Shown: positions 1 to 46,860, counted from the stretch's first letter. The stretch is DNA of 64,000 nt from Squalus acanthias (GCA_030390025.1 CM059431.1:125862001-125926000); one strand, 5' to 3'. Translations and numbers: made by a program. The notes: generated from the sequence alone by a model not told the origin.

Positions 1-402
1 AAACCAGCGTTGTTTAAAGGGGCCACTGAAGACTGCCACAAAATGTTTAATAGACAAAAAATGTACCTTCCTGAATGTGGAGCCAGGAGGAGCAGGATTG
101 CCTCATTGAAACTGCGGGCTGCTGCTGGCCACCGCTCACAACCCCCTCCCGATCTCCTCAACCCCCCTTTCCCGGACTCACCTTCAGCCTGGTGTCAGTA
201 TCTCAGCAGGCTAACTTCCCTCCTCTTTGTGACCAACATATAGCCTTCTGGGGTACGATTGATGCAACCAACAGCCCTGACACGTGCTGATGACCCAAGA
301 GGACCAATTGGGCGTGGTCTTCTTGTGAAATAGTTTCGGCGTGGCAGTAAAAGCTGTCATTGGTTTTACACCCGAATTTGGGCGTGAACCATTTTCTAGG
401 CC
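1..402. mobile_element. Right end of a Harbinger-type element/MITE, truncated by the window edge
   Basis: Ends in ATTTTCTAGGCC (391-402), which resembles the GG-n5-A(A/T)(A/T)TT terminal 12-mers of other Harbinger ends in this window; GC-rich subterminal sequence. Confidence 0.4.
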
Positions 403-3920: not shown

Positions 3921-4129
3921 GATTGGTTGATATTGTTACTGTAAATATGTGTAAATTGATTTTTAATAAATGTATTAATTCTGTTTGGAATCTTTTGTGC
4001 TGGCTCTCATTTCAGCTTTGTGCCCAGGAGGACACTGTGATATTCCGTGACAGAAGGATTGTATGATGGGGATGTGGTGAGCAACAGGGACCTGGGGTTT
4101 CATTCATTGGAATCAGTGTCTGATGAGGA

Positions 4130-4667
4130 GACACAGACAGCCAGTAGTGAAGGGGGATTGGCTGCCTTCCTCCTCCCTTCCTCCTCATCCTCATCCTCTT
4201 CCTCTTGCTCATCTTCCTCTTCCTCCTCCTCCTCCTCCTCTCCATTGTCTTTCTCCTGAGGTAGTCCCGCAATCCCTGGTGGCAAGGGCAGCACCCTCAT
4301 GATGACCAAGTTGTGGAGCATACAGCAGACCACCACAAAGTGGGACACCCGCTCTGCCGAGTACTGGAGGGCTCCTCCTGAGTGGTCAAGGCAGTGGAAC
4401 CATTGCTTCAGTAAACAATGGTCTGCTCGATGATGTTCCTGGTGGAAGCAATGCTCTCATTATATGAGTGCTGGGCACGAGTGGTGGGGTTCCGGAGGGG
4501 AGTCATCAGCCAGGTGCAGAGCGGATAGCCCTTGTCTCCGAGCAGCCACCCTCGAGTTTCATGTGGTGGCTGGAAGATTGCTGGCACACCGATTAATGCA
4601 GGATGAAGCCATCATGGCTGCTGCCAGTATAGCGGGCATTGACCGTCAGGAAGTACTGGGCATGGTC
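4130..4667 (-). pseudogene. Harbinger (HARBI1-like) transposase, 3' half
   Basis: VSHFVVVCCMLHNLVIMR plus acidic tail, matching VSKFVVVCCMLHNMAILR of the intact transposase at 52162-53322; frameshifted; cut by provirus 1. Confidence 0.85.
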
Positions 4668-6387
4668 TGTAGAATTCGCAATTATCGCGATTTGATTAAT
4701 AAGGAGAAAACACAAAATTTCGTTCAAACAGCTTTTATTTCAGCAGAATGCTGTCAGGTTTAAATTGGACACAAGCAGCCTGTAAAATGGCCGCCGCACC
4801 TCGTGACAGAACATTCTAGACTTTTCAACAGGCAGACAAGATGGCGTTCCATTAAACATTTTTTGCAAGATCGATGACGATTCAGCACAGTGAAGATAAT
4901 ACACGGGACATTATGGGTTTGCAGTATAAACATAGATACTGGAATCGGTCTCCCAGGTGCAAAGGAAAGCCATTGTACCAAGTACTTAAGGGCCCATCCA
5001 AAGGACATTAATATGTAAACTCCCAACGGCTCTACGATGAGAGAGCCGTTAGCAGGTAGTTATACAGGACACTTGGAAGCCCCAAACCCCTCCAGGGAGA
5101 ACACCGACCGATTTAACAATGGGAGAAATATTAACAGGTACTCAAACATTCATGAGTAGCCCCGAAACCCATTAAGAACGGAGATCACCCATACAAGACA
5201 TTTGGGCGCCAAACCCTAAACAAAAGAATGGACATTATAGTTGGGCGGGAAACGGAAGATTTTTTGCACTATAATTGCAGGCCCCAAACCGTCCATTCGC
5301 TCTCTTGCCGCTCTTGCTCGCTTGCTGCTTTTATCATCGTGGCTGCTCCTGTGTTTTATCCGGTCGATTCGTAACCTCGTGGCTGCTCCTGTGTGCTCGT
5401 AGTTGGGCTTCTGCGTGCCTGTTGCCTCTTCTGAAAAGACTGTTGAACTTTCTGATCCGTACGGATCTACCTCGTGTCGCGTAACGAAGACCTATGTTGG
5501 TAACTGGCAGCGGAACCAAAGGCCCGAGATGAGATGAGATGAGATGAGATGAGAGGAGAAGAGAAGAAGACCATATCCATCGCCACGGTCAGTAAATCCC
5601 GACCGCGCCTGTAGGTCGATCAGCCAAGTCTTCTCGACAGGAAGTTTTCTTCTTTAAACTTCTAACAAAGCATATTGCATCAATGATAACGGGACTGTGC
5701 AAACACATCGTATCAATGATATTGACAACGGTGCTCCTCGACTAAACTGTGAAGTCAACCAACAGAGGTCTTCACTACAGCAGACGGTCCAGCCTACTAG
5801 CCCGAGCAGCAGAAGCCAGTAAACAAGTGGGACCAGGAGATCTCCTGACCGACACGTGGGTGCTGCGGTGAAAAACATCCGATCAGCTATTCGGGATTTC
5901 TCCGAGTTATTACGAGTGGTGAGCATGAGTCTCGAGATCCTACGAAGCTAGTTTAGGATAGATATTGATAGGGGAGGGTTTAAAGATTAAGGATATTTGT
6001 AATGTATGCCCTATTTACGTTGTGCCGTTCGTTCCTCGTTTCCCTAAGATTGATTATAACCGTTTGTCAGATTGTACTGTCATTAATCTGTGCGTATGAC
6101 ATGTATTTCATAATTTTAAGTATCATGCAATAAAGATTTTCCATTTCGTACCATTCAAACCAAGTCTACATGAGTTTTATCTCCATTACTGCTCTCGCAT
6201 CTAAGTCCAGTGTCTAGAACCGTAAGGGAGAGTGATTCGAACCACTCACAGGTGTGTCTAGTGTTCCCAGACTGGCTGGAGACCAGAACAGGCAACCAGG
6301 CCTAGACCCGCACTGACATACAGGCTGCACAGAGCCGCGTGAATCTCACAGGCTACGAGACACGCAGGGTCAGGAGAATCCCTTACA
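4668..6387 (+). repeat. 5' LTR of provirus 1 (1720 bp)
   Basis: TGTAGAATTC...CCCTTACA. No difference from 15791-17510 seen by eye, and the ORF translations are identical. GC box 5243-5249, TATAAT 5270-5275, (GAGAT)n ~5527-5552, AATAAA 6129-6134. Confidence 0.97.
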
Positions 6388-6391
6388 GAAA

Positions 6392-8203
6392 ATGGCGACC
6401 GCGGCAGGACACTGGCAGCGAGAGGGTAGTGTGTTAGATTTTGGAATGACGGTACGAAATGTTATGCAGGAAAAGATAGCGGATTATGTGTTTGGAAAGG
6501 TTAATCTAACTAAAAAGTGGATAAGTGAATTGTTAGCGGATAAGAGCCCACTAGAGGCAGCTGAAAGGTGGACAGATAGTAAGGAGCATAAAAAGGCAGT
6601 TGAGAAAGCAGTCTGGCTTATGTGCTACAAAAGGCAGGTTCAGATTTCAAACCAGACCATTACAGCGCTAACAGCTCGTATCAGCCATTTAGAGGGAGAA
6701 ATGGAGGAGAAGGTTTCTGGAGGGGAGGTGCTCATTAAGAATTTAAATGAGTTACGCCAGGAAAGCCAGGAAGTCTCCAGTTACCTTAAAACAAGGGTAG
6801 AGTATCTCGAGTGCCAGATCACTGAAGCAAAATTGAACGAGAGTAGGATGAAGGAAAGATGTAACCGCCAAGCTGCCCAGATAAGAACTCAAGAAGAGAG
6901 CTTAATGGGGGTTAGGTCGGCGTATAAGTTGGCCCTTGAGGATAAGTTTCAGGGAGCCGACCATAGCGCCTGCCAAAAAGAGATAGAGAGCCTCAAAAAG
7001 GCCGTGAATAATGCGAACGGCATGGTGTGCCTTATCAATCCGTCGGCGCGCCAGCCGCTAGTAAATGAGAGATTTAGAAATTCCCCACCAAGTAAAGCAG
7101 AAGAAGTAGTAGCCACTGCGCCCTCCGCGCCACCCAGCTATTCAGAAACCTGGGTTAGGGAGGAAGCAACGGAAGAAACAAAAGAGCCCGTTAAAAAGGA
7201 AGTAGAAAAGGGATCGTTGTATCCAGTAACGGGTATTAAAAGGGGCCCAAGCAGAAACGGTGGGGAAGAACCGGGGGATCTCCTCGGACAGCTGGTGTTG
7301 CCTCACAGTTCACATCAGCTGAGAGCCATGATAAACCACGTAAGGAAGCTGACCGAGATAGACGACCCTTCCGTACATTTCAGGGAAGTTGAGCAAGCCG
7401 CAGCCATTAACGGCTGCGATGATGGGGAGACAGCAAAAATGCTGCTGTTCTCATTAGACAGCTCGGTCCTTCAGTGTCTCTCAGGCGAGAGCAAGAGGGG
7501 AAACAAAAGTTATGAGGAATTGAAAAATGAGGTCCTAGAAGTAGTGGGAGCGAACGACGGAGGTCCGTTTGCTAGAGTGGGACAGACAGTGCAGATGGAG
7601 GGAGAACCCCCGAAGGTTTTTGCCGACAGGCTGTGGCCAGTATATGAGCGCAGCTGTCTAGGTGCGCCCGAGCGCGAAGATGTGGAAGGCGCCGCTTTAA
7701 TTCATTGGCTTAGGTGCATAATAGCCAACAGTTTACCAGCCGTTAGAGAGCAGGCAAAAGCCTGGTTCGATCCCAATGACCTCAACCTTACGGAAGAGTC
7801 GGTCTTGAATCGACTCACGTTAGGTTACCGTAACATAAGGGGTATGACGACACGTCCCTTTAAGGGAAGAGTACATGAGGTACGACCCGCAGCCCCGGCT
7901 CAAAGAGAGTGGCATCAGGAGGGTAATCGCGCCCCACAGGCAAGTAATGCCTGTTACGGGTGTGGGAAGACAGGGCACTGGCGCAAGCACTGCAGGAACC
8001 CTTGGAAGGATTCCAAGGATAAAAATCCCGCGGTCCGAGCCCAGGCGCCTGTCCCGCCTAAGGAAGCAAAGGCACCCACCTCTCCCGACGACCTCGAAGC
8101 AGTGTTAGGAGCCATGCGCAAGATGGTTTTGAATGCGCGTGGACAGGTGGCGGTCGCAACCGGCCCCGTAGGTGCCGCAGGACCGTCTAATAGTGCCCCA
8201 TGA
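6392..8203 (+). CDS. gag: Gag polyprotein, 603 aa
   Basis: N-terminal coiled-coil, PSAPPSY late-domain-like motif, capsid-like region (QMEGEPPKVFADRLW), single CCHC knuckle CYGCGKTGHWRKHC. Confidence 0.93.
   Translation: MATAAGHWQREGSVLDFGMTVRNVMQEKIADYVFGKVNLTKKWISELLADKSPLEAAERWTDSKEHKKAVEKAVWLMCYKRQVQISNQTITALTARISHLEGEMEEKVSGGEVLIKNLNELRQESQEVSSYLKTRVEYLECQITEAKLNESRMKERCNRQAAQIRTQEESLMGVRSAYKLALEDKFQGADHSACQKEIESLKKAVNNANGMVCLINPSARQPLVNERFRNSPPSKAEEVVATAPSAPPSYSETWVREEATEETKEPVKKEVEKGSLYPVTGIKRGPSRNGGEEPGDLLGQLVLPHSSHQLRAMINHVRKLTEIDDPSVHFREVEQAAAINGCDDGETAKMLLFSLDSSVLQCLSGESKRGNKSYEELKNEVLEVVGANDGGPFARVGQTVQMEGEPPKVFADRLWPVYERSCLGAPEREDVEGAALIHWLRCIIANSLPAVREQAKAWFDPNDLNLTEESVLNRLTLGYRNIRGMTTRPFKGRVHEVRPAAPAQREWHQEGNRAPQASNACYGCGKTGHWRKHCRNPWKDSKDKNPAVRAQAPVPPKEAKAPTSPDDLEAVLGAMRKMVLNARGQVAVATGPVGAAGPSNSAP
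6393..6410 (+). promoter_or_regulatory. Primer binding site, tRNA-Arg(UCG)-type
   Basis: TGGCGACCGCGGCAGGAC is the complement of GTCCTGCCGCGGTCG+CCA, which I recall as the 3' end of a vertebrate tRNA-Arg-TCG. The same 18-mer is at 46838-46855 (-). Confidence 0.85.
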
Positions 8204-11200
8204 CTAGAACCAGCACAGCCCGTCTACCTGTGTCCGCTCAGCTATGATGCGTGGAGGCGACCTGTGGTGGAGATGGAGGTAGAGAAACAGAAGGGCAGTT
8301 ATTTGTTGGACACGGGAGCTTCTTGCACCATAATCCATACAGATGACCCTTTTGACTCGCCGCTACCTACCAAGGTCCCATTCACGCTAGCAGGGTTCAC
8401 AGGGAAAGAACAGGCTGGCACGTTTTCCCTCCCGCTATCCATTCGTTTAGGAACACTTCGCCTTAAGTGGAAGTGTATACTGATGGCATGGCAAAAGGGG
8501 GGTGGAAGAGGTATTCTCGGGTCCGATCTCCTAGCGGGACACGGGATCCTCGTGGACCTCAGAAATCACTGTCTCTGGGGGGCTAAAGGTGAAAAAGGCG
8601 AGGTAATGGTAATTCAAGGGGAGGAAGAAACAGGGGTCCTGTGTACCGTACAGCCATCCGGAGGCTACGACCTCAGGCTTATGGTCGCAGATGTCCCAAC
8701 GGACATGCAAACGTACGTGTCAGATAATATGCACGCGTTTGCAACCCACAAGCACGATTGTGGGAGGGTGGTCGGGTTTGAGGTCAGCGTAGATGGGGAC
8801 CCCATGACCCGACCCCAAAAGCAGTATAACTTCCCCAAAGAAGCAGAACCCGATATGGAGACAGCAATGTCTTCCTTGGTGCAGCAGGGCGTGTTGAGGC
8901 CGATAGCCACACACGTGAACTCCCCATTATGGCCGGTTAGGAAGCCGGATAATTCGTGGAGAGCCACGGTGGACTACAGAGTCCTTAACAGTAACATTCC
9001 CGCCTGCGCGCCCACAGTAGCAGCAGTTGCTGACCTAATAGGGAGCATCCCAGCGTCCGCGACCACGTTCACGGTGCTGGATATCTCGAACGGTTTTTGG
9101 TCCATCCCGCTGCGGCGAGAGGACCAGTACAAGTTTGCCTTTACGTTTAAAGGGCAACAGTACACGTGGAACTGTTTGCCACAGGGTTTCCACAATAGCC
9201 CCAGTATTTTTCATCAGTGTATGGCAGGAAGTTTAAAGGAGTTTAGTCAGCCCAATCAGATAGTACAGTATGTGGATGATTTGCTCCTATTTACGGACTC
9301 AAGGGAGGAGCACGGACCACTACTGGACGAATTATTGGAGCTGTTAGCGAGAAAGGGTTTTAAAGTAAACCCAAAGAAAGCACGTATCGGTCAGCAGGAA
9401 GTAAAATTCCTGGGACTGACCCTACGCGCTGGGGAAAGAGCCATAGACAAAGCAAGGAGGGAGTCGGTGCAAGAATTACCGATTCCCAGCAACGTAAGGG
9501 GTGTGAGGTCCTTCTTGGGACTGACCGGTTACTGCAGGGATTTTATCGAAGATTATGCGGCCACAGCGGCGCCGCTCCTCCGACTCCTCCATAAGGGGGT
9601 GGAGTGGCTTTGGGACGAGGGCTGCCAAGCAGCCTTCGAGAAGTTAAAAAGGGATCTGCAGACCGCGCCAGCCTTAGGGGCCATAGATGGGGGGAAGGAG
9701 TTTTTCCTGGAGGTGGCTGCCAGCGGGGACAGCTTAAGCGCCGTGCTGCTCCAAGAGCGTCACGGCAAGCTGAGGCCGGTTGTCTATTCGTCCAGGGTAT
9801 TAACGGATGTGGAGAGAAGTTTTTCCAATTGCGAAAGGCACCTTTTAGCCACGCATTGGGCTGTGAAAAGATCAGCGATCTTCACAGGGCTCTCTCCCAT
9901 CACTCTCCTCACACATCACACACCAACTAAGATGCTTCTGGATGGGAGGATTAAAGACGGGACCGTAAGCAGCGCACGCATTGCGCGTTGGACCCTTCTT
10001 CTCTCCCAGTTGGATCTTAGAGTAAAAGGTCTTTGCGAGCCCAGGCTTGCGGCCAATTTGGTATACCCCGGTACAGCCCACCGGTGTTCGGTGGAAGGGG
10101 TGTGGGACGTCAACATAGGTTTACGGGCCGGGATACATCCCACTGGGCGCGAGATTTATGTTGATGGGTCTAGCACAGTATCTGCTGGCGAGCGACTCAC
10201 AGGGTGTGGAGTTTATGACCCTGCGGCAGACCTTGCCCTGGCGATCAAGCTCCCTAGCACCATGAGCGCGCAGCAAGCTGAGCTGTCTGCCGTGGTGTAC
10301 GTGGTGACCCACCCAGACATTTTCCCAACCCCATACACGATTTGCTCGGACAGTATGTTCACCTGCAATTCGTGTACGGAATACCTGGCCATTTGGTCCC
10401 GCCGCGGATACACCTCCGCGGACGGGCGACCTTTAACGGTGAAGCCCTTGCTGGAAAAGATCTTAGCAGCAGCAGTAGGGGAGGAAGGAGAGATTTTCAT
10501 CCATAAGGTGAAAGCTCACTCCTCCACAGAGCCCCGTGGGGAGGGCAACCGGCAGGCGGATGCGCTAGCCAGGGAGGGTGCCCGCGACGGCATTTTCTGG
10601 AACCCCTATAGGACCGGACCCATAGCAGCGGTCCGTGGCGGGGACGGGAATACCGGGAACACCAGGGTAGCATTGCCCCTAGACCTTAAGACCGTCCAAG
10701 CCCAGGATCCCGCCCTAAAAGCAGTCCTAAAAACGATTGCTGAGGGGAGACAGGTAGAAGGTCCGTACAGTACGGCAACCCTCTCAGTTAAGGAAGGCAT
10801 GCTGTTCCGCGGGGAGCAGTGGGTTGTGCCGCAGCAGCACAGGAGGGAATTCCTCCAGTTGGCTCACGAGGGACCAGGGGCAGGGCACCCCGGGCCCGAG
10901 GTTACCTGGCAACGGGTAGAGCAAGCGGGATGGTGGCCAGGGCTCAGGGAACAAGTCCGCGAGTTCTGTGCAAACTGTCTTGTGTGCGCTGCAAACAACC
11001 CAGACCCCCAGAAAAGGAAGGTGCCCATGGGACACGTAAGAAGGGTAGAGGGACCATGGCAGTCGATACAGATCGACTATATAGGACCCCTGCCCACCAC
11101 CCAGGGAGGTTATAAGTACTGCCTCGTCCTGGTAGATGTGTTTTCCAAGTGGGTGGAAGCCTTCCCTTGTCGAACAGCTACGGCACTGGGTACAGCAAAA

Positions 11201-11545
11201 ATCTTGGTCCGGGAAGTGTTCTCGCGATGGGGACTCCCCCGTTTTGTGGAGTCAGACCAAGGGAGTCATTTCACCGGCCAGGTGATGCAGAACACCCTCA
11301 TGCTTTTGGGCATTGAAGGGAAGTGGCACGTAGCACACAATCCCCAGTCATCCGGGATTGTTGAACGTATGAACCGGACCCTGAAGGAGAAATTGAGGAA
11401 AGAGACTAGGAACTCGCCCCAAAAATGGGCGGAAGTTCTGCCTTTAGTCCTCATGGGGGTCCGGGCCAGTCAGTCAAAAAGTACGGGGTACTCCCCGCAC
11501 GAGGTAATGACCGGCAGGCTCATGCGAACCCCACCCATGTGCTAG
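8204..11545 (+). CDS. pol: Pol (PR-RT-tether-RNase H-IN), in frame with gag beyond a single TGA
   Basis: PR LLDTGAS (~8309); RT LPQGFHNSP and YVDD (9269-9280); degenerate RNase H (~9700-10010); RNase H IYVDGS...AE...SDS...GNRQAD (~10154-10585); IN HHCC and DYIG/ESDQG/VERMN. Confidence 0.96.
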   Translation, partial: LEPAQPVYLCPLSYDAWRRPVVEMEVEKQKGSYLLDTGASCTIIHTDDPFDSPLPTKVPFTLAGFTGKEQAGTFSLPLSIRLGTLRLKWKCILMAWQKGGGRGILGSDLLAGHGILVDLRNHCLWGAKGEKGEVMVIQGEEETGVLCTVQPSGGYDLRLMVADVPTDMQTYVSDNMHAFATHKHDCGRVVGFEVSVDGDPMTRPQKQYNFPKEAEPDMETAMSSLVQQGVLRPIATHVNSPLWPVRKPDNSWRATVDYRVLNSNIPACAPTVAAVADLIGSIPASATTFTVLDISNGFWSIPLRREDQYKFAFTFKGQQYTWNCLPQGFHNSPSIFHQCMAGSLKEFSQPNQIVQYVDDLLLFTDSREEHGPLLDELLELLARKGFKVNPKKARIGQQEVKFLGLTLRAGERAIDKARRESVQELPIPSNVRGVRSFLGLTGYCRDFIEDYAATAAPLLRLLHKGVEWLWDEGCQAAFEKLKRDLQTAPALGAIDGGKEFFLEVAASGDSLSAVLLQERHGKLRPVVYSSRVLTDVERSFSNCERHLLATHWAVKRSAIFTGLSPITLLTHHTPTKMLLDGRIKDGTVSSARIARWTLLLSQLDLRVKGLCEPRLAANLVYPGTAHRCSVEGVWDVNIGLRAGIHPTGREIYVDGSSTVSAGERLTGCGVYDPAADLALAIKLPSTMSAQQAELSAVVYVVTHPDIFPTPYTICSDSMFTCNSCTEYLAIWSRRGYTSADGRPLTVKPLLEKILAAAVGEEGEIFIHKVKAHSSTEPRGEGNRQADALAREGARDGIFWNPYRTGPIAAVRGGDGNTGNTRVALPLDLKTVQAQDPALKAVLKTIAEGRQVEGPYSTATLSVKEGMLFRGEQWVVPQQHRREFLQLAHEGPGAGHPGPEVTWQRVEQAGWWPGLREQVREFCANCLVCAANNPDPQKRKVPMGHVRRVEGPWQSIQIDYIGPLPTTQGGYKYCLVLVDVFSKWVEAFPCRTATALGTAKILVREVFSRWGLPRFVESDQGSHFTGQVMQNTLMLLGIEGKWHVAHNPQSSGIVERMNRTLKEKLRKETRNSPQKWAEVLPLVLMGVRASQSKSTGYSPHEVMTGRLMRTPPMC

Positions 11546-12726
11546 CCCCGGTGCTCACTGAGGGTCAGCTTCAAGAGATAAGCAGGGACAAGTTCGCCCA
11601 GACTCTCTTGGAGCGCCTGAAGCAAGTTTATGAGCAGGCGGCTGGGAACATGGGAAGGCAGCATCAGGGCAATCGCTTGTTGCTGGAACCCCGCAAAACG
11701 CGGGAGTGGGAAGTAGGAGACCAGGTCATGGTCAGAAACTACGCCAGAGTAGGGAGTCTGGAACCACTGTATATGGGACCCTACAACATTGTAGACAAGG
11801 CGAGTCCCATGGTTTACGCCGTAAAAGTACCTCGGCGCACTAAGTGGTTCCACATAAACCAATGCAAACTGTACCAGCCGGGTGCGCAGGGGAAAACTAC
11901 AGGGGTAAATCCCGCCAATGGGAAAACACAGCCCCAGGTAGGACCACAAGGCACACAGGCAGGCGTAGCAGCTTGCATCAGGGGAAGGGACATCCCGGAC
12001 GATCATGCAGCGTTTTTCTGGAGTTGGGGGTTAGATGACGAAGAACCCAGGGTACCCTGGTCAGATGAGGATAGTGCAGATGAGCATAGTGATGATGACG
12101 GGTGGTTCCTGAGGAACGGTCTGGGAGGAATGGGGCCGATAGGTAGAGATCCACACGGGGTGGACACACAAGCTGCAGGTCCCGACAACAGGAGGGAGGA
12201 GCTAGAGGAGGCAGGGCCAGCCGCTATAGGAGCACAGAGAGTACCAATGTGGTTCCCAGAGGTGTGGCCGCCCGCTTTGAACGTCCAGTCCTCAGGGGAG
12301 GCAGAGATCACGAGTGAAGGGCCGCCTGCTGGGCCGAGCAGGGCGGAGCCACGAAATGCCAGCCCCGAGGTTAGGGAGGCGGAGTCAGCGGAGGCGGAGC
12401 CGGCGACTGTGATGGAACCCCAGGTCATCCCGTTGGAGGTCTCGGAACCCGGTCCGTCCGTCACGGAACCCCCGCCCATAGCAACTCCCCGTAGGTCAAG
12501 CAGAGAACCCCAGCCCAGGAGGATGTGGTCATGTCCCCAGACTGCCCCAAGGCGTAAAATTCAGGTTAAGATAACCCGGGTAGAGACAGGCCACATCGCA
12601 GCAGTAACAGGCTGCGGCAGATCAGAGGAAAGGGTCAGCGCAGCAACAGGCTGCGGCAGATCAGAGGGAAGGGTCAGTGCCCTCCCACCGTCGGGAAGAG
12701 CTCGCAGCAGCCTTCTCAGAATTTAA
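11530..12726 (+). CDS. Integrase C-terminus (GPY/F) plus long acidic/Pro-rich extension, shifted -1 relative to pol
   Basis: WEVGDQVMVR...LYMGPYNIV...WFHINQCKLY is a typical IN C-terminal module. Adding one C to the C4 run at 11529-11532 restores MRTPTHVLAP and a continuous Pol. Confidence 0.85.
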   Translation, partial: PTHVLAPVLTEGQLQEISRDKFAQTLLERLKQVYEQAAGNMGRQHQGNRLLLEPRKTREWEVGDQVMVRNYARVGSLEPLYMGPYNIVDKASPMVYAVKVPRRTKWFHINQCKLYQPGAQGKTTGVNPANGKTQPQVGPQGTQAGVAACIRGRDIPDDHAAFFWSWGLDDEEPRVPWSDEDSADEHSDDDGWFLRNGLGGMGPIGRDPHGVDTQAAGPDNRREELEEAGPAAIGAQRVPMWFPEVWPPALNVQSSGEAEITSEGPPAGPSRAEPRNASPEVREAESAEAEPATVMEPQVIPLEVSEPGPSVTEPPPIATPRRSSREPQPRRMWSCPQTAPRRKIQVKITRVETGHIAAVTGCGRSEERVSAATGCGRSEGRVSALPPSGRARSSLLRI

Positions 12727-13016
12727 AGGGGCCGCCCTGAGAACGGGCGGCACTGTAAAGTTATTAGTTTAAGGTTTTAAGTTTATAGTTCAAAGTTAAG
12801 TTTTAAGTTTATTAGTTCAAGGTTAAGTTTGTAGTGTTTTAACAGATAACGATAAAATGATGGGAGTTTTAAGGCTAGGTTTAGAGGAAGTCTATTCAGC
12901 AAACGTTGAAGTTTACGTGAGGCGAGGTCAGGGGACCCGCTCACCCTTCACAACAGCCAGAGACTTTTTGCGAGGCTGGCTACCTCATTCTATCTGATCA
13001 CAGGAACCAAGGAAGG

Positions 13017-15368
13017 ATGGAACGACTTCTAGTATTGCTCGTGGCAATCGGATGTGGATTGGCCTACCGAGGCCACACCAAGGATGTCGTGGTGTTTGGA
13101 TGTTCCGGGGACACGGCCCCCATCGCGGTGGATGGGACCGGAAGACGGAAGGCAGAGGGGACCAGCACCTATTTCCACAAGGGAAGGTGGCCAGGATGGC
13201 TGGGAACGAACTCAACGGAGTATTCCAGCACATCGGGGTTCGCCTACAAAGAGACTTCTTTAATGTGCCCCAAAGTACGGATCATCGCACCCAGGATCAG
13301 CGTCACCGTCGGCAAACGGATTTGTTTGACCTGTAGTGGGGATGTCCCATTGAGCCGATGGTGGTGGCTGCGAAAGCTGAGCAAAACTATGAGAAACTCT
13401 TCGGTCGAGTGGGAACGACTGGGTAATAATACCCATCGGACAATTACGGGGACAGACGGACAAGTGAAAGTCTGTTGGGACAAATGGTGGGAACCGGATG
13501 AGGGGATTTATGTATGTATGTGGGGGTCAAAGTACGTTTGCCCCAAAGGCATCTCCATATTTTTTATTAAACAGTGGCAGGATAACGGACAGGGGATGAG
13601 GTGGGATGCGAGCACCAGGGGGTGCGGAGCCCCATTCTCCCCGATCCCAGTAAATGCCACTGAGCTCATTACGCGCCCACGCAAAGCCCCGCCCACGATT
13701 CCGGTGGTTCTAACTGAGGAAGAAGGGTGCCCTAAAACTAGTAAGGGACCCGGGAACGGTTTGGTACTGGTCCCCACAGACCAGATACTATTTCAGGGGG
13801 TACATTACGCGGTGGCCTCGGTGATTTTAAATCTCACTGAGGTACGGTTACCAGAGTGGTGCCCCAAAAAGACGGAACAGTTGTATCAGGTCCTGTTGAC
13901 CAAGATGTTCAGACAATTTTACGAGTTTGATTTTGCAGAAATTGACAAGACAAGCTTGTACACCGCACCACACGAAGTTTTGGGTCAGGTGGGGAGACAA
14001 AGAAGGGGTGTGGTGAACGATGCGTTCACTGCTTTTAACACAGGGACATCTGTGGTCAACGCTCTAGACAGTGTGGAGCTGCAGACCCAGATTAATGGTT
14101 TAAAAACACAGTTAAAAGACATTCTAACAGATGAGAATAAAGTGGTAGGGTCAGGTCTACACGAGGACCAAGCCATGACTCTCCATTTAAAGGAAATCAT
14201 AGCAGAGCTGGAGAAACATGCGCGTACGGTAAATGCCCTGATTAGGGAAGATCGGAATGCATCCGATCAAGCTGCGCAGAACGAGGTGTGCGTGCTTTAC
14301 GGGGCGTGGTTACTGGGCGAGGGCCGCAGTAATTTGGAGGATTTAAAACAAGGTTTGGTTCCGTCCTGGATAAGTAACAAACACCTACGGGCGCTCCACC
14401 CTTTTCAGAACGCATTAAGTCCGTGCCAGCTCAGGCTAGCTTCAGAAGCTTACCCAGTCCCCGTGGACTGCGGACGTTCAAACCATACTATTATGGGAAT
14501 AGTATTACGCATGCCGGTTTTGGGCAACACAGCAAAGCCCGCCCCGGTATATCGGGTAGAGAACATTGGTGTCATTCAGGGGGGAGTCCACATTCGTTAT
14601 GCAGCGGTTCCACCTTACGTCATCCGCTGGGAGCAAACGATGACAGGTACAGATCTCTCTGGTTGTCGTGGCAGGGGAGCACACATAATACTGTGCCCCC
14701 AGCACTTGAATGCCTTTTTAACACCACAGTGCGGGTTCAGAACGGCTGGCGCCAAGTCCATGAATTGCACCATGGAGGCAATGGCACAAGATCATGTGCC
14801 TCCGCAGGTAGCATACATCGGGGGTGGAACATATTGTGTTACCACTGCAGCGCAACACTACCAGCATGGAAACCGTAGCCGGTGTCCGGTGAGTGACAGC
14901 AGTTTCTGTTTTAAACCCAGGGCTGAAGTTCAAGTAGCACAACAGCGAATTATCCCAATCCCTGAACCATCCACTGTTCATCTCACAGTAAAAGAGAATT
15001 TCACCGACTTGCAGCAATTTGTCGCGCATTTTGGATACCTCATTCCCCCTCTCCCTGAGCATTTAACCAAACTTCTGAAAGCCGTCGCGGTATCACAGAA
15101 GCATTTTTATACGTTAGAGCAGAAAACTGTCGAGATAGGAACAGACATTTTGGACATAGTGGTTCCACCGTGGTGGAATCTGTTCACGAATATTGAAGTG
15201 CCTTCATGGGTCAGAATAGCCTCCCACATTTTAGTCGTCTGTCAAGTGTTTATTGTAGTGTACCTATTGTTCATACATTGTAAAAGAGACAAGCGCCTCA
15301 CCAAGCATGAGAACACGGGAGAGTGGCGAGAACGTTACGTGCGCGTGCACGACGAGAGTACCGTGTAA
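13017..15368 (+). CDS. env: Env, 783 aa: signal peptide, Ig-like domain, class I fusion core resembling paramyxovirus F, TM anchor
   Basis: Hydrophobic N-terminus, N-glycan sequons, furin site RQRR (13995-14006), heptad region, Cys-rich region, TM ILVVCQVFIVVYLLFIHC and short tail. Candidate splice acceptor CTGATCACAG (AG at 13002-13003). Confidence 0.92.
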   Translation: MERLLVLLVAIGCGLAYRGHTKDVVVFGCSGDTAPIAVDGTGRRKAEGTSTYFHKGRWPGWLGTNSTEYSSTSGFAYKETSLMCPKVRIIAPRISVTVGKRICLTCSGDVPLSRWWWLRKLSKTMRNSSVEWERLGNNTHRTITGTDGQVKVCWDKWWEPDEGIYVCMWGSKYVCPKGISIFFIKQWQDNGQGMRWDASTRGCGAPFSPIPVNATELITRPRKAPPTIPVVLTEEEGCPKTSKGPGNGLVLVPTDQILFQGVHYAVASVILNLTEVRLPEWCPKKTEQLYQVLLTKMFRQFYEFDFAEIDKTSLYTAPHEVLGQVGRQRRGVVNDAFTAFNTGTSVVNALDSVELQTQINGLKTQLKDILTDENKVVGSGLHEDQAMTLHLKEIIAELEKHARTVNALIREDRNASDQAAQNEVCVLYGAWLLGEGRSNLEDLKQGLVPSWISNKHLRALHPFQNALSPCQLRLASEAYPVPVDCGRSNHTIMGIVLRMPVLGNTAKPAPVYRVENIGVIQGGVHIRYAAVPPYVIRWEQTMTGTDLSGCRGRGAHIILCPQHLNAFLTPQCGFRTAGAKSMNCTMEAMAQDHVPPQVAYIGGGTYCVTTAAQHYQHGNRSRCPVSDSSFCFKPRAEVQVAQQRIIPIPEPSTVHLTVKENFTDLQQFVAHFGYLIPPLPEHLTKLLKAVAVSQKHFYTLEQKTVEIGTDILDIVVPPWWNLFTNIEVPSWVRIASHILVVCQVFIVVYLLFIHCKRDKRLTKHENTGEWRERYVRVHDESTV

Positions 15369-15749
15369 TAGGAAAATGGCGTCACTCCCGCTCGCCACGT
15401 GCGCCGCGGAAGTTTGTACTCATTGTAAATACGTTGGAAACTCGACATGTTTAAGAGTTGGGATTTGTTTATTTTGGTGATGGTGTTGATTGTTTGGTTT
15501 TGGGTTTTGTTTTTCCTTTCCCTGAATAAAAGACAAATATACAGGTGATGCGTGAGGTATCGGCCTGGTTACGCCGGAAAGGAAAACAAGTGGTGTAAGT
15601 TTAAGGGCAAATGATGCCTACGGTGATATAAAATGTGATTTTCTTGGGAAATGAGGACGACACAGAGACCCTAGTTAAGTTAAAATTTATGGGATTAATT
15701 TACTGGATTCGGAGTGAAATCGAGATAAGATTGCTCACCACTGAGATTT

Positions 15750-15790
15750 TTGATACGATAAGCGGAGTTATTCGCATCAACAGGAGGGAC
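15750..15790 (+). promoter_or_regulatory. Short polypurine tract (AGGAGGGA) within a conserved 41-nt block
   Basis: Abuts the 3' LTR; identical to 40764-40804 (-) in provirus 2. Confidence 0.75.
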
Positions 15791-17510
15791 TGTAGAATTC
15801 GCAATTATCGCGATTTGATTAATAAGGAGAAAACACAAAATTTCGTTCAAACAGCTTTTATTTCAGCAGAATGCTGTCAGGTTTAAATTGGACACAAGCA
15901 GCCTGTAAAATGGCCGCCGCACCTCGTGACAGAACATTCTAGACTTTTCAACAGGCAGACAAGATGGCGTTCCATTAAACATTTTTTGCAAGATCGATGA
16001 CGATTCAGCACAGTGAAGATAATACACGGGACATTATGGGTTTGCAGTATAAACATAGATACTGGAATCGGTCTCCCAGGTGCAAAGGAAAGCCATTGTA
16101 CCAAGTACTTAAGGGCCCATCCAAAGGACATTAATATGTAAACTCCCAACGGCTCTACGATGAGAGAGCCGTTAGCAGGTAGTTATACAGGACACTTGGA
16201 AGCCCCAAACCCCTCCAGGGAGAACACCGACCGATTTAACAATGGGAGAAATATTAACAGGTACTCAAACATTCATGAGTAGCCCCGAAACCCATTAAGA
16301 ACGGAGATCACCCATACAAGACATTTGGGCGCCAAACCCTAAACAAAAGAATGGACATTATAGTTGGGCGGGAAACGGAAGATTTTTTGCACTATAATTG
16401 CAGGCCCCAAACCGTCCATTCGCTCTCTTGCCGCTCTTGCTCGCTTGCTGCTTTTATCATCGTGGCTGCTCCTGTGTTTTATCCGGTCGATTCGTAACCT
16501 CGTGGCTGCTCCTGTGTGCTCGTAGTTGGGCTTCTGCGTGCCTGTTGCCTCTTCTGAAAAGACTGTTGAACTTTCTGATCCGTACGGATCTACCTCGTGT
16601 CGCGTAACGAAGACCTATGTTGGTAACTGGCAGCGGAACCAAAGGCCCGAGATGAGATGAGATGAGATGAGATGAGAGGAGAAGAGAAGAAGACCATATC
16701 CATCGCCACGGTCAGTAAATCCCGACCGCGCCTGTAGGTCGATCAGCCAAGTCTTCTCGACAGGAAGTTTTCTTCTTTAAACTTCTAACAAAGCATATTG
16801 CATCAATGATAACGGGACTGTGCAAACACATCGTATCAATGATATTGACAACGGTGCTCCTCGACTAAACTGTGAAGTCAACCAACAGAGGTCTTCACTA
16901 CAGCAGACGGTCCAGCCTACTAGCCCGAGCAGCAGAAGCCAGTAAACAAGTGGGACCAGGAGATCTCCTGACCGACACGTGGGTGCTGCGGTGAAAAACA
17001 TCCGATCAGCTATTCGGGATTTCTCCGAGTTATTACGAGTGGTGAGCATGAGTCTCGAGATCCTACGAAGCTAGTTTAGGATAGATATTGATAGGGGAGG
17101 GTTTAAAGATTAAGGATATTTGTAATGTATGCCCTATTTACGTTGTGCCGTTCGTTCCTCGTTTCCCTAAGATTGATTATAACCGTTTGTCAGATTGTAC
17201 TGTCATTAATCTGTGCGTATGACATGTATTTCATAATTTTAAGTATCATGCAATAAAGATTTTCCATTTCGTACCATTCAAACCAAGTCTACATGAGTTT
17301 TATCTCCATTACTGCTCTCGCATCTAAGTCCAGTGTCTAGAACCGTAAGGGAGAGTGATTCGAACCACTCACAGGTGTGTCTAGTGTTCCCAGACTGGCT
17401 GGAGACCAGAACAGGCAACCAGGCCTAGACCCGCACTGACATACAGGCTGCACAGAGCCGCGTGAATCTCACAGGCTACGAGACACGCAGGGTCAGGAGA
17501 ATCCCTTACA
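15791..17510 (+). repeat. 3' LTR of provirus 1 (1720 bp)
   Basis: Direct repeat of 4668-6387, followed by TSD GGTC. Confidence 0.97.
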
Positions 17511-18140
17511 GGTCGCACAACAACTGCACATTAAGTGAGTGGTAGCCTTTGCATTAAGGAAGATATCAGGATTGTTATGCGGTGCCCGCAAAGCCACGTG
17601 TGTGCAGTCGATGGCGCCCTGCACCATAGGGAAGCCCACTATCCTGGCAAAGCCACATGTGTGCTGCTGCTGCTTATCTCTGCTCAGAGTGAAAAAAACA
17701 TAGTCCCTTCTCCTGGTGCAGAGAGCCTCAGTGACTTCCCGGATGCAGCGATGGATGCTGAACTGTGAGATGTTAGCTATGTCTCCTGCTGCAGACTGGA
17801 AGGATCCACTGGTGAAGAAATTGTGGGCGACGGTGATCTTGAATGCCATTGGGATAGCTATGGTCGCCCTGCTCTCAGGCTGCAGATCTGGTTGCAAGAG
17901 GTGGCAGAGTTCTGTTACCACCTCCTTGGTGAAGCGGAGCCTCCTAATACACTGCTCCTCACTTACATGGATATAAGAGAAGTGCTCTGGGAAGATCCTA
18001 GGTGAGTAAGGCCTCCTGTGGAGAGTCCTCCTGGCCCTCCTCCTCCTCCCTCTGTGCGCATCTTCTTGTCTTCTTCGCTACCTCTGCTCCTTCTCCCGAA
18101 CGTACTCGAGCGCGAGGGGGACTGCCAGTAGAGCCCCCAT
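17511..18140 (-). pseudogene. Harbinger transposase, 5' half (continues at 4667)
   Basis: VTELCHLLQPDLQP...GFPMVQGAIDCTHVALRAP is nearly the same as the intact transposase at 52162; frameshifts present. Confidence 0.9.
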
Positions 18141-19906: not shown

Positions 19907-21537
19907 TGTAAGGGTTTTGTGTCTCAGACAGTGCTGGTGCGAGGTTAGGCCTTCGTTGCCTAATACTATTGCTTGCTCTGGTCTCCGGCCAGCCTTTTTG
20001 CAATAAGCACCTGTGAGTGGTTCGACCCACTCGCCCTTACGGTTCTAACGCTGGACTTAGGTGCAGGGAGCAGTAATGCAGAGAAAACTTAAATAGACCC
20101 GGTTGAATAGTACGAAATGGAAATCTTTATTGCATAGCGTCCAAAATCATGAAGTACATGTCATAGGCGCAAATTAACGAGAGTACAAGTATACATACAT
20201 TCATAAAGCTTGGTCTATGGTAATGAAGAACGCACGGCACATCATAAAAAGGGGAACACATTATACTTTAACCTTAATAACCACCCTCCCTTAACAATAC
20301 CTACACTACGTCTAGATTTGTAGGATCGGGGAACATGCTCACCACTCGTGCTACTTCGGAGAATTTTAAAGTGAGGCACTCGGCTCGTTTCGCTGCAGCG
20401 CCTGACTGTCACGTGTTTGGAAGGGTCTCTGTACCCCACTTGTTTATCTTCGCTGCTGCGACAAGCAGGCCAGACTCCCTGTTGTCATGAAGAAGTTGAT
20501 GGACCCAAACCGGATCGTGCAGTAACCCGTAGAATTCAAAAAAATGAGTTCTGTATTTATATTTTCGGGCGCGGTCGGGGTTTACTGACCGTGGCGGCAC
20601 GTGGATTCTTCTTCTTTTCTTGTCGTTTCGTCTTATCTCTTCGGGCCTTCGGGTCCAGACACCGTTTACCGACTCTCGGGATGGTGCACCCTGCTACTTG
20701 CCCTTGTCGGGGCGGCTCGTCCCGATTGAGCCCCACCCAACATTCGAATAACCGTCCAGTGCGGCTAAAGTCCAGAGTCAACAGAGTCCAGGAAAGCACA
20801 GAAGCTCACCAGTCAAGCGAGTCCATGGAGCGGCAAGCGAATAAGAGAGTGAAACCCTCAGCAGTCAGCAGCGAGATAAGAGAATAAGCGAGCGATGGAC
20901 ATTTGTTGTCTATAGTTATAGTGCTGTGTTCCCTTATCTCCCGCCCAAATCTTAATGTTTGTCCTTTGTGAAATTTTGGCGCTCAAAACTCCCAGCATGG
21001 GGTGATTCTTGTCTTTAACGGGTTTCGGTAGCACCTGAGACTGGTCAACTACCCGTTAATGTTTTCCCCATTGTTGGCCCAGCCAGGATCGTATGAATCG
21101 TCTCCCTGACTGGTTTTGGGGGCCCCCGAATACTTGTTTAATCACCCGAGAATGGCTGTCTCATTGTAGAGCCGTGGGGGTATTTGTGTATTGATGTGTC
21201 TGGATGGGCCTTCGATTGCCCAGTACAATGGTCCTTACTTGTGCATGGAAAACGATTCCAGCACTCATATCTTTTGCTATTGTCACAAATGCAAACAGGT
21301 TGCATCCTGTCTTTATCAGTGCTTATCGAGTATGATCCAGCCTTATATTGAAATGTTTATTCGAATGCCATCTTGTCTGCCCACTGTACTTCTGGAAGCT
21401 TCTGCCACGATGCGCGGCGGCCATTTTACAGGCTTCTGTGTCCTTTATATCATTACAGCATTTTGTTTAAATAAACTGATCAAACGAATCTGCTTCTCTT
21501 TCGTTATTTTGAATCGCGATAATAGCGAAACTTTACA
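19907..21537 (-). mobile_element. Solo LTR of the same ERV family (1631 bp)
   Basis: TGTA...TACA termini, 4-bp TSD CCTG (19903-19906 and 21538-21541), colinear with the provirus 2 LTRs. Confidence 0.95.
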
Positions 21538-39105: not shown

Positions 39106-40763
39106 TGTAAGGGGGAACGTGTCTCTCAGACGGTGCTGGTGCGAGGTTAGGCTTTCGTTGCCTAATACTATTGCTTGCTCTGGTCTCCGGCCAGCCCTTT
39201 TGCAATAAGCACCTGTGAGTGGTTCGACCCACTCGCCCTTACGGTTCTAACACTGGACTTAGGTGCAGGGAGCAGTAATGCAGAGAAAACTCAAATAGAC
39301 CTAGTTGAATAGTACGAAATGGAAATCTTTATTGCATAGCGTCCAAAATCATGAAGTACATGTCATAGGCGCAAATCAATGAGAGTACAAGTATACATAC
39401 ATTCATAAAGCTTGGTCTATGGAAATGAAGAACACACGGCACATCGTAGAAAGGGGAACACATTATATCTTAACCTTAAAAACTACCCTCCCTTAACAAT
39501 ACCTACACTACGTCTAGATTTGTAGGATCGCAAAACATGCTCACCACTCGTGTTAGTTCGGAGAATTTTAAAGTGAGGCACTTGGCTCGTTTCGCTGCAG
39601 CGCCTGACTGTCACGTGTTTGGAAGGGTCTCTGCACCCCACTTGTTCATTTTCGCTGCTGTGACAAGCAGGCCAGGCTCCCTGTTGTCATGAAGAACTCA
39701 ACAGAACTCGGACACAGTTCAAAGAAAAGTCTTCCTGTGCTCGATACCGGTTGTCGGGAGAACTCAAAGGAAAGTTCTTTATTTATATTTTCGGGCGCGG
39801 TCGGGGTTTACTGACCGTGGCGGCACGTGGATTCTTCTCCTCTTCTTCTCGTCTCGTCTCGTCTCTTCGGGCCTCCGGGTCCAGACACCGTTTACCGACA
39901 CTCGGGATGGTGCACCCTGTTACTTGCCCTTGTCGGGGCGGCTCGTTCCGATTGAGCTCCACCCAACACTCGCATAACCGACCAGTACGGCTATAAGTCA
40001 AGAGTCAACAAAGTCCAGAGAGAAAACACAGAAGGCTGCCCGTCCAGGAGAGTGCTACCAGAGGATAAGAGTTAAGCCCGAGTTAAAAGAATAAGAGCCA
40101 GCCGGGAGAATAAGAGACCGATGGACATTTGTTCTCTATAGTTATAGTGATGTGTCCGCTTATCTCCCGCTCAAATCTTAATGTTTGTCCTTTGTGTAAT
40201 ATTGGCACTCAAAACTCCCAGCATGGGGCGGTTATCTTTCTTAAAGGGTTTCGGTAGCACCTGAAACTGGCCAACTATCCGTTAATGTTTTCCCCATTGT
40301 TGAACCAGCCAGGATGTGTACGAATCGTCTCCCTGACTGGTTTTGGGGCCCCCCAAATACTTGCTTAATCACCCGTCAATGTCTCTCTCATTGTAGAGCC
40401 GGGGGGGTATTTGTGTATTGATGTGTCTGGATGGGCCTTCGATTGCCCAGTACAATGATCCTTACTGTGCATAGGAAAACGATTCCAGCACTTATATCTT
40501 TGCTATTGTTTCAAATGCAAACGGGTTGCATCCTGTCTATATTAGTGTTTACCGAGTATGATCCAATCTTATACTGAAATGTATATTCAATGCCATCTTG
40601 TCTGCCCACTGTGTCTCTGGAAGCTTCTGCCACGATGCGCGGTGGCCATTTTACAGGCTTCTGTGTCCTTTATTATCATGACAGCATTTCATTTAATAAA
40701 ACTGATCAAACGAATCTGCTTCTCTTATGTTATTTCGAATCGCGATAATTGCGAAACTTTACA
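39106..40763 (-). repeat. 3' LTR of provirus 2 (1658 bp)
   Basis: Repeat of 46861-48497 with scattered substitutions and a ~21-bp indel. Confidence 0.95.
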
Positions 40764-41159
40764 GTCCCTCCTGTTGATGCGAATAACTCCGCTTATCGTA
40801 TCAATTAAAAATGGTGGTGAGCAAAATTATCCCGATTCTCCACATCCAAACACTCCCGGTAATTAAGTTTATCTAGGGCCTCCATGCAGTCCTCATTTCC
40901 ACAGAAAAATTACATTGTCTAAACTTGGACAAACCGTAGGCAGCATTGTCTTTAAACTTACACTGCGTATACGCCTTCCAGGTGCAAAAGGCCGATGCCT
41001 CTCGCACCACCTGCATATGCATGTTTTATTATAAAAGGAAAAATAATCAAACCAACTGTTTTAAAAATACAAAAGTTCCAAACTTAGTTACACATACTCA
41101 TAAATAATAACAATTACAAAAACACACACGGTAAAATGGAGCGGCGTCATCCTGGCCGT

Positions 41160-43510
41160 TTACGCGGTACTTTCCTCGTTCACACGCATGTAACGTTCTC
41201 TCCACTCCCCTGTGTTCTCCTGCCTCATGAGGCGTTTGCCTCTTTTGCAGTGTACGACCAATAGGTACACTACAATTACAACTTGACACACTACCAAAAT
41301 GTGGGAGGCTATCCTGATCCATGACGGAACTTCAATATTAGTGAACAGATCCCACCACAGTGGGACTACTATGTCCAGTATCTCTGTCCCTATCTCTACA
41401 GTCTTTTGTTCTAGGGTGTAAAAATGTTTCTGTGATACCATGACGGCTTTTAAAATCTTGGTGAGGTGTTCAGGGAGAGGGGGAATGATGTATCCGAAAT
41501 GCGCGACGAATCGCTGCAAGTCTGTGAAATTCTCTTTTACTGTGAGGTGAACAGTGGATGGTTCAGGGATCGGGACAATTCGCTGTTGTGCCACTTGAAC
41601 TTCAGCCCTGGGTTTAAAACAGAAACTGCTGTCACTCACTGGACACCGGCTGTGCTGTCCATGCTGGTAGTGTTGCGCTGCAGTGGTAACGCAATACGTT
41701 CCACCCCCTATGTATGCCACCTGTGGGGGCACATGATCTTGTGTCATTGCTTCCATGGTGCAATTCATGGGCTTCGCGCCAGCCGTTCTGAACCCGCATT
41801 GTGGTGTTAAAAAGGCATTCAAGTGCTGGGGACACAGGATGATGTGTGCTCCCCGGCCACGACAACCCAAAAGGTTGGTACCTGTCATCGTTTGCTCCCA
41901 GCGGATGACGTAAGGTGGGACCGCTGCATAGCGAATGTGGGCTCCCCCCTGAATGACTCCGATGTTCTCCACCCGGTACACCGGGGCGGGCTTTGCCATG
42001 TCGCCCAACACCGGCATCCGTACCACTATACCCATGATAGTATGGTTTGACCGTCCGCAGTCCACTGGGACTGGGTATGCCTCTGAGGCTAGCCTGAGCT
42101 GGTACGGGCTTAATGCGTTCTGAAAAGGGTGGAGCGCCTGCAGGTGTTTGTTACTTATCCAGGACGGGACCAAACCTTGTTTTAAATCCTCCAAATTACT
42201 GCGGCCCTCGCCCAGTAACCACGCCCTTTATAGTACGCACACCTCGTTCTGCGCAGCTTGATCGGATGCATTCCGATCTTCCCTGATCAGGGCATTTACC
42301 GTTCTCGCATGCTTCTCCAGTTCTGCTATAATCTCTTTTAAGTGGAGTGTCATGGCCTGGTCCTCATGTAACTCAGACCCTACTACCTTGTTCTCGCTTG
42401 TGAGGATGCTTTTTAACTGTGTTTTTAAACCGTTGATCTGGGTCTGCAGCTCCACATTGTCTAGAGCGTTGACCACAGATGTCCCGTAATAAAAGCAGTG
42501 AACACATCGTTCACAACACCCCTTCTTTGTCTCCCCACCTGACCCAAAACTTCGTGTGGTGTGGTGTATAAGCTTGTTTTGTCAACCTCTGCAAAATCAA
42601 ACTCATAAAATTGCCTGAACATGTTTGTTAACAGGACCTGGTACAATTGTCCCGTTTCTTTGGGACACCACTCTGGTAAATGCACCTCGGTGAGATTTAG
42701 AATCACCGAAGCCACCGCGTAATGTACCCCTTGATATAGTATCTGATCTGTTGGCACCAGTACCAGACCATTCCTGGGCCCCTTAGTGGTTTTAGGGCAC
42801 CCTTCCTCCTGAGCCAAAGCCGCCGGAATCGTGGGCGGTGACTTGCGTGGGCGCGTGATGAGTTCAGTGGCGTTTACCGGGATCGGGGAGAATGGAGCTC
42901 CGCACCCGCTGGTGCTGACATCCCACCTCATCCCTTTCCCATCATCCTGCCACTGTTGTACGAAAAATATGGATATACCCCTGGGGCAAACGTACTTCGA
43001 TCCCCACATACAAACATATATTCCCTCATCCGGTTCCCACCATTTGTCCCAACAGACTTTCACTTGTCCGTTAGTCCCCGTAATTATTCGATGGGTATTG
43101 TTACCCAATCGCTCCCACTCGACCGAGGAATTTCTCATAGTCTTGCTTAACTTCCGTAACCACCACCATCGGCTCAATGGGACCTTCCCATTGCACGTCA
43201 AACAAATCCCTTTGCCGGCGGTGACGCTGATTCTGGGTGCAATGATCCTCACCCTGGGACACAGTAAAGAAGTCTCTTTGTAGGCAAATCCGGATGCGCT
43301 GGAGTATTCCGTCGAATTCGTTCCCAGCCATCCCGGCCACCTTCCCTTGTGGAAATAAGTGGCGGTTTCCTCAGCCTCTCGCTCCCCGGTCCCATCCGTC
43401 GCGATGGGGGCCGTGTCCCCGGAGCAACCGAACGCAATGACATCCTTGGTGAGGCCCCGATAGGCCAATCCATATCCGATCGTTGCGAGCACTATCAGAA
43501 TCCTTTCCAT
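41160..43510 (-). pseudogene. env: env of provirus 2 (one frameshift ~42485, one in-frame TAA at 42228-42230)
   Basis: Three ORF pieces colinear with env 13017-15368, including the Ig-like domain, RQRR and TM. Confidence 0.93.
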
Positions 43511-43779
43511 CTTTCTTGGTTCCTCTGATCAGATAAAATGATGTAGCCAGCCTCCCAAGAGTCTCTGGCTTTTGTGAAGGGTGAGCGGGTCCCTTGACCT
43601 CGTCTCACGTAAAAAGACATGTATGCTGGATAGACTTTAACTATTCCTATCACTAACTCCCATCACTTTACCATTTACTTAAAAATTAAACTACAATCTT
43701 ACCAAACTTAAAAAAACTATAAACTTAAACTTATCCTAAACTTAACTGTACAGCGCCGCCCGTTCCCAGGGCGGCCTAC

Positions 43780-46856: not shown

Positions 46857-46860
46857 TTCC

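Follow-up and report, generated by a model that had tools for sequence, protein, structure and literature searches.

A probable SnRV-grade endogenous retrovirus with a predicted F-like envelope protein in Squalus acanthias

Endogenous retroviruses (ERVs) of the SnRV clade, also called 'clade Huo' and counted in class III (PMC6001957, PMC12193657), infect all major vertebrate lineages (PMC6001957), and SnRV-like ERVs have been reported from the elephant shark as CmiERV lineage I (PMC4422223). F-like envelope proteins (Envs) have been published for the lokiretroviruses (PMC7947760) and for the foamy viruses, whose Env shares its fold with paramyxovirus and pneumovirus F (PMC11468914). Here we describe a provirus at positions 4668-17510 of a 64,000-nt stretch of Squalus acanthias DNA (GCA_030390025.1 CM059431.1:125862001-125926000; the whole stretch is called the window). 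It has the gene order gag-pol-env between two long terminal repeats (LTRs), and it and the other three insertions of its family in the window are each flanked by a 4-bp target-site duplication (TSD; Table 1). The original prediction had taken it for a very young, almost intact lokiretrovirus-like element. We conclude that it is very probably a canonical retrovirus of SnRV grade and not a lokiretrovirus.

Lokiretrovirus membership is defined by the reverse transcriptase (RT). The window RT falls inside the canonical retroviruses, in the clade that takes in SnRV and the epsilon-, gamma- and ERV-L-like viruses, in three trees (100/98, 100/98 and 100/97), with both eel lokiretroviruses outside, and so the lokiretrovirus label fails. 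Forcing the window RT together with the eel lokiretroviruses was rejected (p-AU 0.0037). The trees were drawn from a Pol reference pool of the best 120 of 302 matches. An 80% coverage filter left 117 rows and dropped 4; 62 of these rows went into the first tree, 36 of them into the second, and 31 rows together with 8 reference viruses into the third. References were anchored by eye to alignment rows of PMC7947760, giving P0020/L001 as SnRV and L005 as WDSV, and the eel (Synaphobranchus) proteins P0035 and P0048 closely match the Loki-Aro row of that alignment. The sequence motifs agree with the trees in placing the window apart from the lokiretroviruses. Its LPQG, LDISNGFWSI and QYVDD are as in the SnRV row; the lokiretrovirus rows inspected in PMC7947760 have CPFG or TPFG ahead of YVDD where the window has the retroviral LPQG, and all but one have VPLSRWPM where the window has the SnRV-like PTVA. 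The window RT is 43.5% identical to that of SnRV, with 38% for the lokiretroviruses and 53% for ERVs of frog and coelacanth; SnRV is, by this measure, the nearest named virus. P0027, a protein from the horn shark, falls in a basal ERV lineage other than that of the window.

The rest of gag and pol resembles SnRV in plan. Both viruses have a coiled-coil Gag with one CCHC zinc knuckle (CX2CX4HX4C at residue 521 in the window), an in-frame stop followed by pol, a tether plus RNase H, and a GPY integrase. In the window pol runs in the gag frame past the TGA for 1,113 codons, and a domain search bore out the predicted dual RNase H, a degenerate copy (tether) followed by a second RNase H. Because SnRV has a dual RNase H too, this feature is not diagnostic of lokiretroviruses. 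The same holds for the whole combination on which the earlier identification had relied, as YVDD, the tether and RNase H, the single CCHC, the GPY integrase and a homologous Env are all found in SnRV. The two viruses differ in the gag stop (UAG in SnRV, UGA in the window), in the Env open reading frame (ORF; 1,134 aa in SnRV, 783 aa with a short tail in the window) and in the absence from the window of a long ORF past env. SnRV as a species is marked by accessory ORFs and a 3′ORF; in the window, a search for unspliced, ATG-initiated ORFs of at least 70 aa found none between env and the 3′ LTR. The integrases are 35% identical, and the closer RT relatives of the window are the frog and coelacanth ERVs. 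Between its RNase H and its integrase, SnRV Pol also carries an insert (L001 ~4600-5150) with two H-x-T/S motifs that is absent from window Pol. We take this insert to be like a 2H phosphoesterase.

The original prediction had pol broken by one single-base indel. The pol frame is lost late in the integrase, and the remainder continues in another frame. The ORF of this remainder matches SH3_Tf2-1 (E 1.3e-4) and MLVIN_C (E 0.006), though neither match reaches the curated cut-off. A natural relative that is 81% identical (P0001) has a single open frame across the break zone. In four sequencing runs, 70%, 70%, 76% and 100% of the contig depth over this zone differs in length from the window; with most of the depth length-variant in every run, the break is either a minority feature or an error in the assembly. 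As assembled, the copy would be without its integrase C-terminal domain, and its movement would depend on an intact relative acting in trans. Past the SH3-like domain, the acidic proline-rich tail extends for ~270 codons and has ~40-44% identity to that of a pol-less sister copy in the window.

Several results weigh against our overall reading. The RT trees hold just two near-identical lokiretrovirus rows, both from eel, and neither Odin nor foamy viruses; an alignment search for reference viruses returned 16 loci with no foamy virus among them. Within the canonical retroviruses the window RT forms no supported clade with SnRV; its place is in an open basal grade that also takes in the frog and coelacanth ERVs. 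Gag similarity to SnRV Gag is marginal (E 0.02). The integrase scores 192 bits against eel lokiretrovirus integrase and 132 bits against that of SnRV, and an integrase tree of 77 rows (7 of 83 matches dropped for coverage; no CGIN1 row) does not settle the position of the window. No RNA structure supporting read-through was found downstream of the gag stop (z +1.1).

A true lokiretrovirus, the first from a cartilaginous fish, would account for the integrase scores, the dual RNase H and the predicted F-like Env. The window further shares with the published lokiretroviruses the order gag-pol-env and, in Env, a signal peptide, a coiled coil, a transmembrane segment and a furin-type cleavage site (PMC7947760). 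We nevertheless judge a lokiretrovirus very improbable, given the RT trees and motifs described above. The window also differs from those lokiretroviruses in lacking a separate smc gene and in having a probable Ig-like head before the F-part of Env, and its Env profile found no match in the partial eel lokiretrovirus Env of P0048, a weak test on a gene-model fragment. Viral contigs searched with the window RT and with the eel lokiretrovirus Pol gave no matches. The earlier list of lokiretrovirus hosts, which lacked cartilaginous fish, agrees in part with the study of Wang and Han, where three chondrichthyan genomes were screened and none held a lokiretrovirus (PMC7947760), and with our literature search, which found no lokiretroviruses in cartilaginous fish in a scope that stopped short of the end of their supplement. 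The proposed extension of host range falls away because SnRV-like ERVs were already published from the elephant shark (PMC4422223).

We give almost no credence to an ordinary element of the Ty3/gypsy type, or to a foamy virus, even with the GPY/SH3 integrase tail, a gypsy-like tether score and an Env fold shared with foamy viruses. The original prediction had named an RT within Ty3/gypsy as an outcome that would tell against it, and on this point the RT lies outside the gypsy rows, separated from 8-13 of them by starred branches in the three trees. Ty3/gypsy membership was rejected on this placement and on the two RNase H domains of pol, where the criterion is a single one. Among solved structures, the RT ranks MLV (E 2e-70) above foamy virus (3e-63) and Ty3 (1e-41). 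Foamy viruses are not known to have a CCHC in Gag or to make Pol by read-through. The window has a CCHC Gag and an in-frame gag-stop-pol arrangement, traits that speak against Spumaretrovirinae.

The Env of the provirus is predicted to be a paramyxovirus F-like class I fusogen over residues ~245-731, in agreement with the original prediction. It has a furin-type site, RQRR, at residue 327 (R-X-R-R, not R-X-K-R), and the model contains helices. The AlphaFold model was built from a 33-row alignment and has a mean pLDDT of 62 and a pTM of 0.42, with the core mostly at 70-94. Foldseek placed hPIV3 F first (E 1.1e-10), and 36 of the 36 matches listed were paramyxovirus or pneumovirus F. VIA-align gave Z 11.4 to NDV F (rmsd 9.9 Å, 386 aligned) and 8.3 to foamy Env. 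The predicted fusion core common to the window, foamy Env and paramyxo-/pneumovirus F spans Z 8.0-11.4, at a sequence identity of 6-15%. Foamy Env differs: it has a leader peptide and, in place of the probable N-terminal Ig-like head of the window, a large insert for receptor binding. In BFVD the best matches were insect and fish negative-strand-virus glycoproteins, and WDSV and WEHV-1 Env also matched (E 4.6e-11 and 3.5e-8). A search of the Atlas with the whole Env returned one cluster at 0.84. The fold prediction is tempered by the mediocre quality of the model, by TM-scores of at most 0.31 by query, and by Pfam and solved-sequence searches of Env that found neither an F (PF00523) nor an Ig family.

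Profile comparisons show, at the level of sequence, a kinship of this Env with those of SnRV and WDSV. Against 47 reference ORFs, the Env family profile scored 33.2 bits with WDSV Env and 21.8 with SnRV Env; the other 45, gamma-type Envs included, scored at most 1.3. None of 1,000 shuffled SnRV Envs reached the real score (maximum 7.3), and hhalign aligned the family to SnRV Env with probability 93.7 over 350 columns. The homology with SnRV lies in the F-part. The epsilonretroviruses WDSV and WEHV-1 differ from the window in a class I RT that is distant in the tree, a much longer Env and accessory genes, although WDSV is the best reference match to the profile.

Ahead of the fusogen, Env probably carries an Ig-like head. 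Residues 85-177 match Ig V domains (TCR/Fv) at Z 6-7 and rmsd ~3 Å, values to be read with the caution that Z below 8 is common by chance. The same residues have a language-model feature score of 0.90-0.91 against Ig clusters and carry Ig-type motifs, and one Env relative is annotated 'Ig-like domain-containing'. Folded alone, the N-terminal part gave pLDDT 46 and a best Z of 5.5 to a non-Ig structure, which speaks against the head. Ig-type motifs resembling those of the window head also occur near the N-terminus of SnRV Env (L001 6131-6400), in a shorter stretch.

On its dN/dS of ~0.1, env is under purifying selection: the one pair of copies compared, window env and that of the pol-less sister, gave 0.11 for one piece of env, 0.10 for another and 0.065 over the Ig region. 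Close relatives of the Env are found in skate and sawshark (53-75% identity), and distant ones in smooth-hound, bamboo shark and two frogs (19-31%). In the gene models P0122, P0123, P0130 and P0159, pieces of the Env family also appear joined with domains of the host (Niban, zinc fingers, cadherin, F-box); these are probably annotation chimeras.

These results bear on whether the provirus is a mosaic, with gag and RT of SnRV grade and an env, perhaps also an integrase, gained through recombination with either a lokiretrovirus or some negative-strand RNA virus, the F-like Env then being uninformative on the ancestral retrovirus. Domain replacement is documented in retroviruses (PMC7947760), the lokiretrovirus integrase joins the frog and coelacanth relatives at 91/94 in the integrase tree, and the best BFVD matches are negative-strand-virus glycoproteins. 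We consider a mosaic origin rather unlikely, since in sequence the Env family lies nearer to the Envs of SnRV and WDSV than to all other reference ORFs, and foamy Env has the same fold (PMC11468914). Furthermore, the gene model of a frog Pol that belongs to this RT grade runs on into the beginning of the window's Env family (P0002 vs P0155, 48% over 107 aa), which indicates that the pairing of this RT grade with this Env family is old.

The provirus was likely inserted recently, as the original prediction of a young element had it. The predicted identical LTRs and intact TSD stood up to alignment, which gave 0 mismatches over 1,720 bp and GGTC on both sides, and gag and env are uninterrupted as claimed. 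Zero mismatches bound the divergence at 0.17%, or an age below 0.4 My at the mammalian rate of PMC7947760 and below ~4 My if one takes the rate that PMC4422223 assumed for sharks. Identity between LTRs is nothing unusual, as 412 invading ERVs are listed in 123 vertebrate species (PMC10435555); identical LTRs were seen in 2 of 11 dated lokiretrovirus copies (PMC7947760). An invading ERV in the sense of PMC10435555 has identical LTRs, as here, and all genes intact, and here pol is broken in the assembled copy.

It is improbable that the provirus is older than it looks and that LTR identity arose by assembly homogenisation, gene conversion or a slow host clock. The family is very deep in the reads, its LTRs vary among copies, and none of the contig pieces listed spans the provirus, and so LTR identity may be partly an assembly effect; the slow shark rate (PMC4422223) would allow up to ~4 My at zero mismatches. 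Yet gag and env are fully open and the TSD is perfect. The sister provirus keeps 45 LTR mismatches in 1,637 aligned positions, which means that the assembly is not homogenising LTR pairs in general. Short gag and pol pieces in run X6 (organism B) are near-identical to the window, with 0-1 differences at a depth of ~940-1,220, and the unique flank bin is uncovered in that run.

An empty-site joint that skips the provirus occurs in two of four runs (X1 at depth 96, X5 at 77, against ~10 for unique-flank pieces). We take it for paralogous empty sites and not for evidence of insertion polymorphism, a further mark of invading ERVs (PMC10435555): the depth is ~8-10 times that of the unique flank, which lies ~2 kb from the site, and the Harbinger element at the site is multicopy. 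Run X16, guessed to be RNA, has a pol-to-flank depth ratio below that of DNA run X1, so DNA carry-over can explain it, and no splice joint was among the 15 joints listed, with 639 further joints beyond the listing. Relative depth in this run is higher over the first two bins of the LTR.

The depth of the family indicates that it is very abundant. Contig depth summed over the internal genes in run X1 is ~88,000-245,000 against 23 in the unique flank bin, a measure that is not a copy number. Seven other organism codes (B-H; runs X6-X24) hold ~0.3 of the words of window 1-10000. Of these runs X6 was the one examined, and as its near-identical gag and pol pieces stand at a depth of ~1,000, the family may be shared among related species.

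The provirus interrupts a decayed Harbinger transposase gene, the halves of which remain collinear on either side of it. The predicted cartilaginous-fish host is supported by the close Env relatives in skate and sawshark and by the transposase at 52090-53322, whose relatives are from sharks or rays in 62 of the first 63 matches (best identity 65-66%). This is an intact-looking ORF of 410 aa on the plus strand, followed by a 380-aa ORF (whole 52090-54759), and additional decayed Harbinger copies lie at ~35500-38300 and around the provirus. The other three family insertions are all on the minus strand. In the pol-less sister provirus gag and env are frameshifted, and at 44220-45068 on the minus strand the first pol-frame residues past the gag stop are followed by a coiled coil and then by the acidic pol tail; this coiled coil has a duplicated heptad block and by eye looks like a piece of another Gag. 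Elsewhere, a direct repeat of two near-identical 297-bp units (29418-29714 and 30558-30854, 1,140 bp apart) overlaps a 282-aa minus-strand ORF.

Table 1. Coordinates of the provirus, its features and related insertions in the window.
Feature	Position	Strand	Details
Left TSD	4664..4667	+	GGTC; same 4 bases at right end
5′ LTR	4668..6387	+	1,720 bp; TG..CA ends
gag	6392..8203	+	603 aa; N-terminal coiled-coil-like region; ends TGA then CTAG
Primer-binding-site-like 18-mer	6393..6410	+	starts TGG, 5 nt past LTR; overlaps first gag ATG
pol in gag frame	8204..11545	+	protease, RT (LPQG, QYVDD), tether, RNase H, integrase zinc finger and core
Out-of-frame pol remainder	11410..12726	+	GPY/SH3-like integrase C-terminal domain, then long acidic proline-rich tail
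env	13017..15368	+	783 aa; signal peptide, transmembrane helix, short tail; no CX6CC
Probable Ig-like domain of Env	13269..13547	+	residues 85-177; fold matches, feature score, motifs
Polypurine-tract-like short stretch	15779..15790	+	before 3′ LTR; kept before 3′ LTR of second provirus
3′ LTR	15791..17510	+	1,720 bp; TG..CA; same sequence as 5′ LTR
Right TSD	17511..17514	+	GGTC; matches left end
5′ half of interrupted, decayed Harbinger transposase gene	17544..18008	-	3′ half ~4244-4670
Solo LTR, provirus family	19907..21537	-	TSD CAGG
Older pol-less sister provirus	39106..48497	-	LTRs 39106-40763, 46861-48497; TSD TTAG
Solo LTR, provirus family	61264..62873	-	TSD CCTG

The layout of the provirus and general retrovirology suggest the following life cycle. 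The 5′ LTR, with TATA-like words at 4925 and 5270 and its sole AATAAA at 6129, would drive the genomic RNA, and Gag would be translated from the ATG at the primer site. Gag-Pol would be made by read-through of the in-frame UGA, analogous to the in-frame UAG of SnRV at the same junction. CUAG after UGA is a leaky stop context. Env would come from a spliced RNA and be cleaved at RQRR; it would then refold into a six-helix bundle to bring about membrane fusion, with the Ig-like head likely serving attachment. Integration would leave the 4-bp duplication. The family has likely spread by reinfection via particles, with pol-less copies carried along in trans, because purifying selection on env is seen even against the pol-less sister copy. 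Two details of the LTR region were also noted. A GC-box-like word, the TATA-like word at 5270 and the AATAAA fall within 5243-6134, so that R would be ~850 nt if these are working signals. The first gag ATG lies 4 nt past the LTR (6388-6410), which leaves almost no leader; the 5′ LTR of the second provirus is followed by the same primer-site layout.

That a shark or ray should harbour a young SnRV-like ERV is to be expected. The Env of this one is less so: the literature searched held no F-like or Ig-headed Env in SnRV-clade ERVs (Calcraft et al. 2024 and preprint supplements were outside the search), and a sequence link from the F-like Env of a canonical-RT virus to SnRV and WDSV Env was not found there. 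A predicted F-like Env on a canonical RT means that such an Env is no lokiretrovirus marker and is unusable for calling lokiretroviruses. It also predicts that the Envs of two exogenous fish viruses, SnRV and WDSV, should have the F fold. Wang and Han left open four scenarios for the origin of retroviral env (PMC7947760). An intact, selected F-like Env beside a canonical RT, linked in sequence to the Envs of SnRV and WDSV, speaks for the one where the F-like Env is old and the orthoretroviral Env a replacement, and an F-like Env may be ancestral in retroviruses. It is tempting, though we hold it at somewhat less than even odds, to carry this further: the F-like fusogen would be the ancestral retroviral Env, surviving in lokiretroviruses, foamy viruses, epsilonretroviruses, SnRV and this shark lineage, the SU-TM Env of gamma- and betaretroviruses would be a later replacement, and the shark lineage would have added an Ig-like head for attachment and would still be reinfecting its host.

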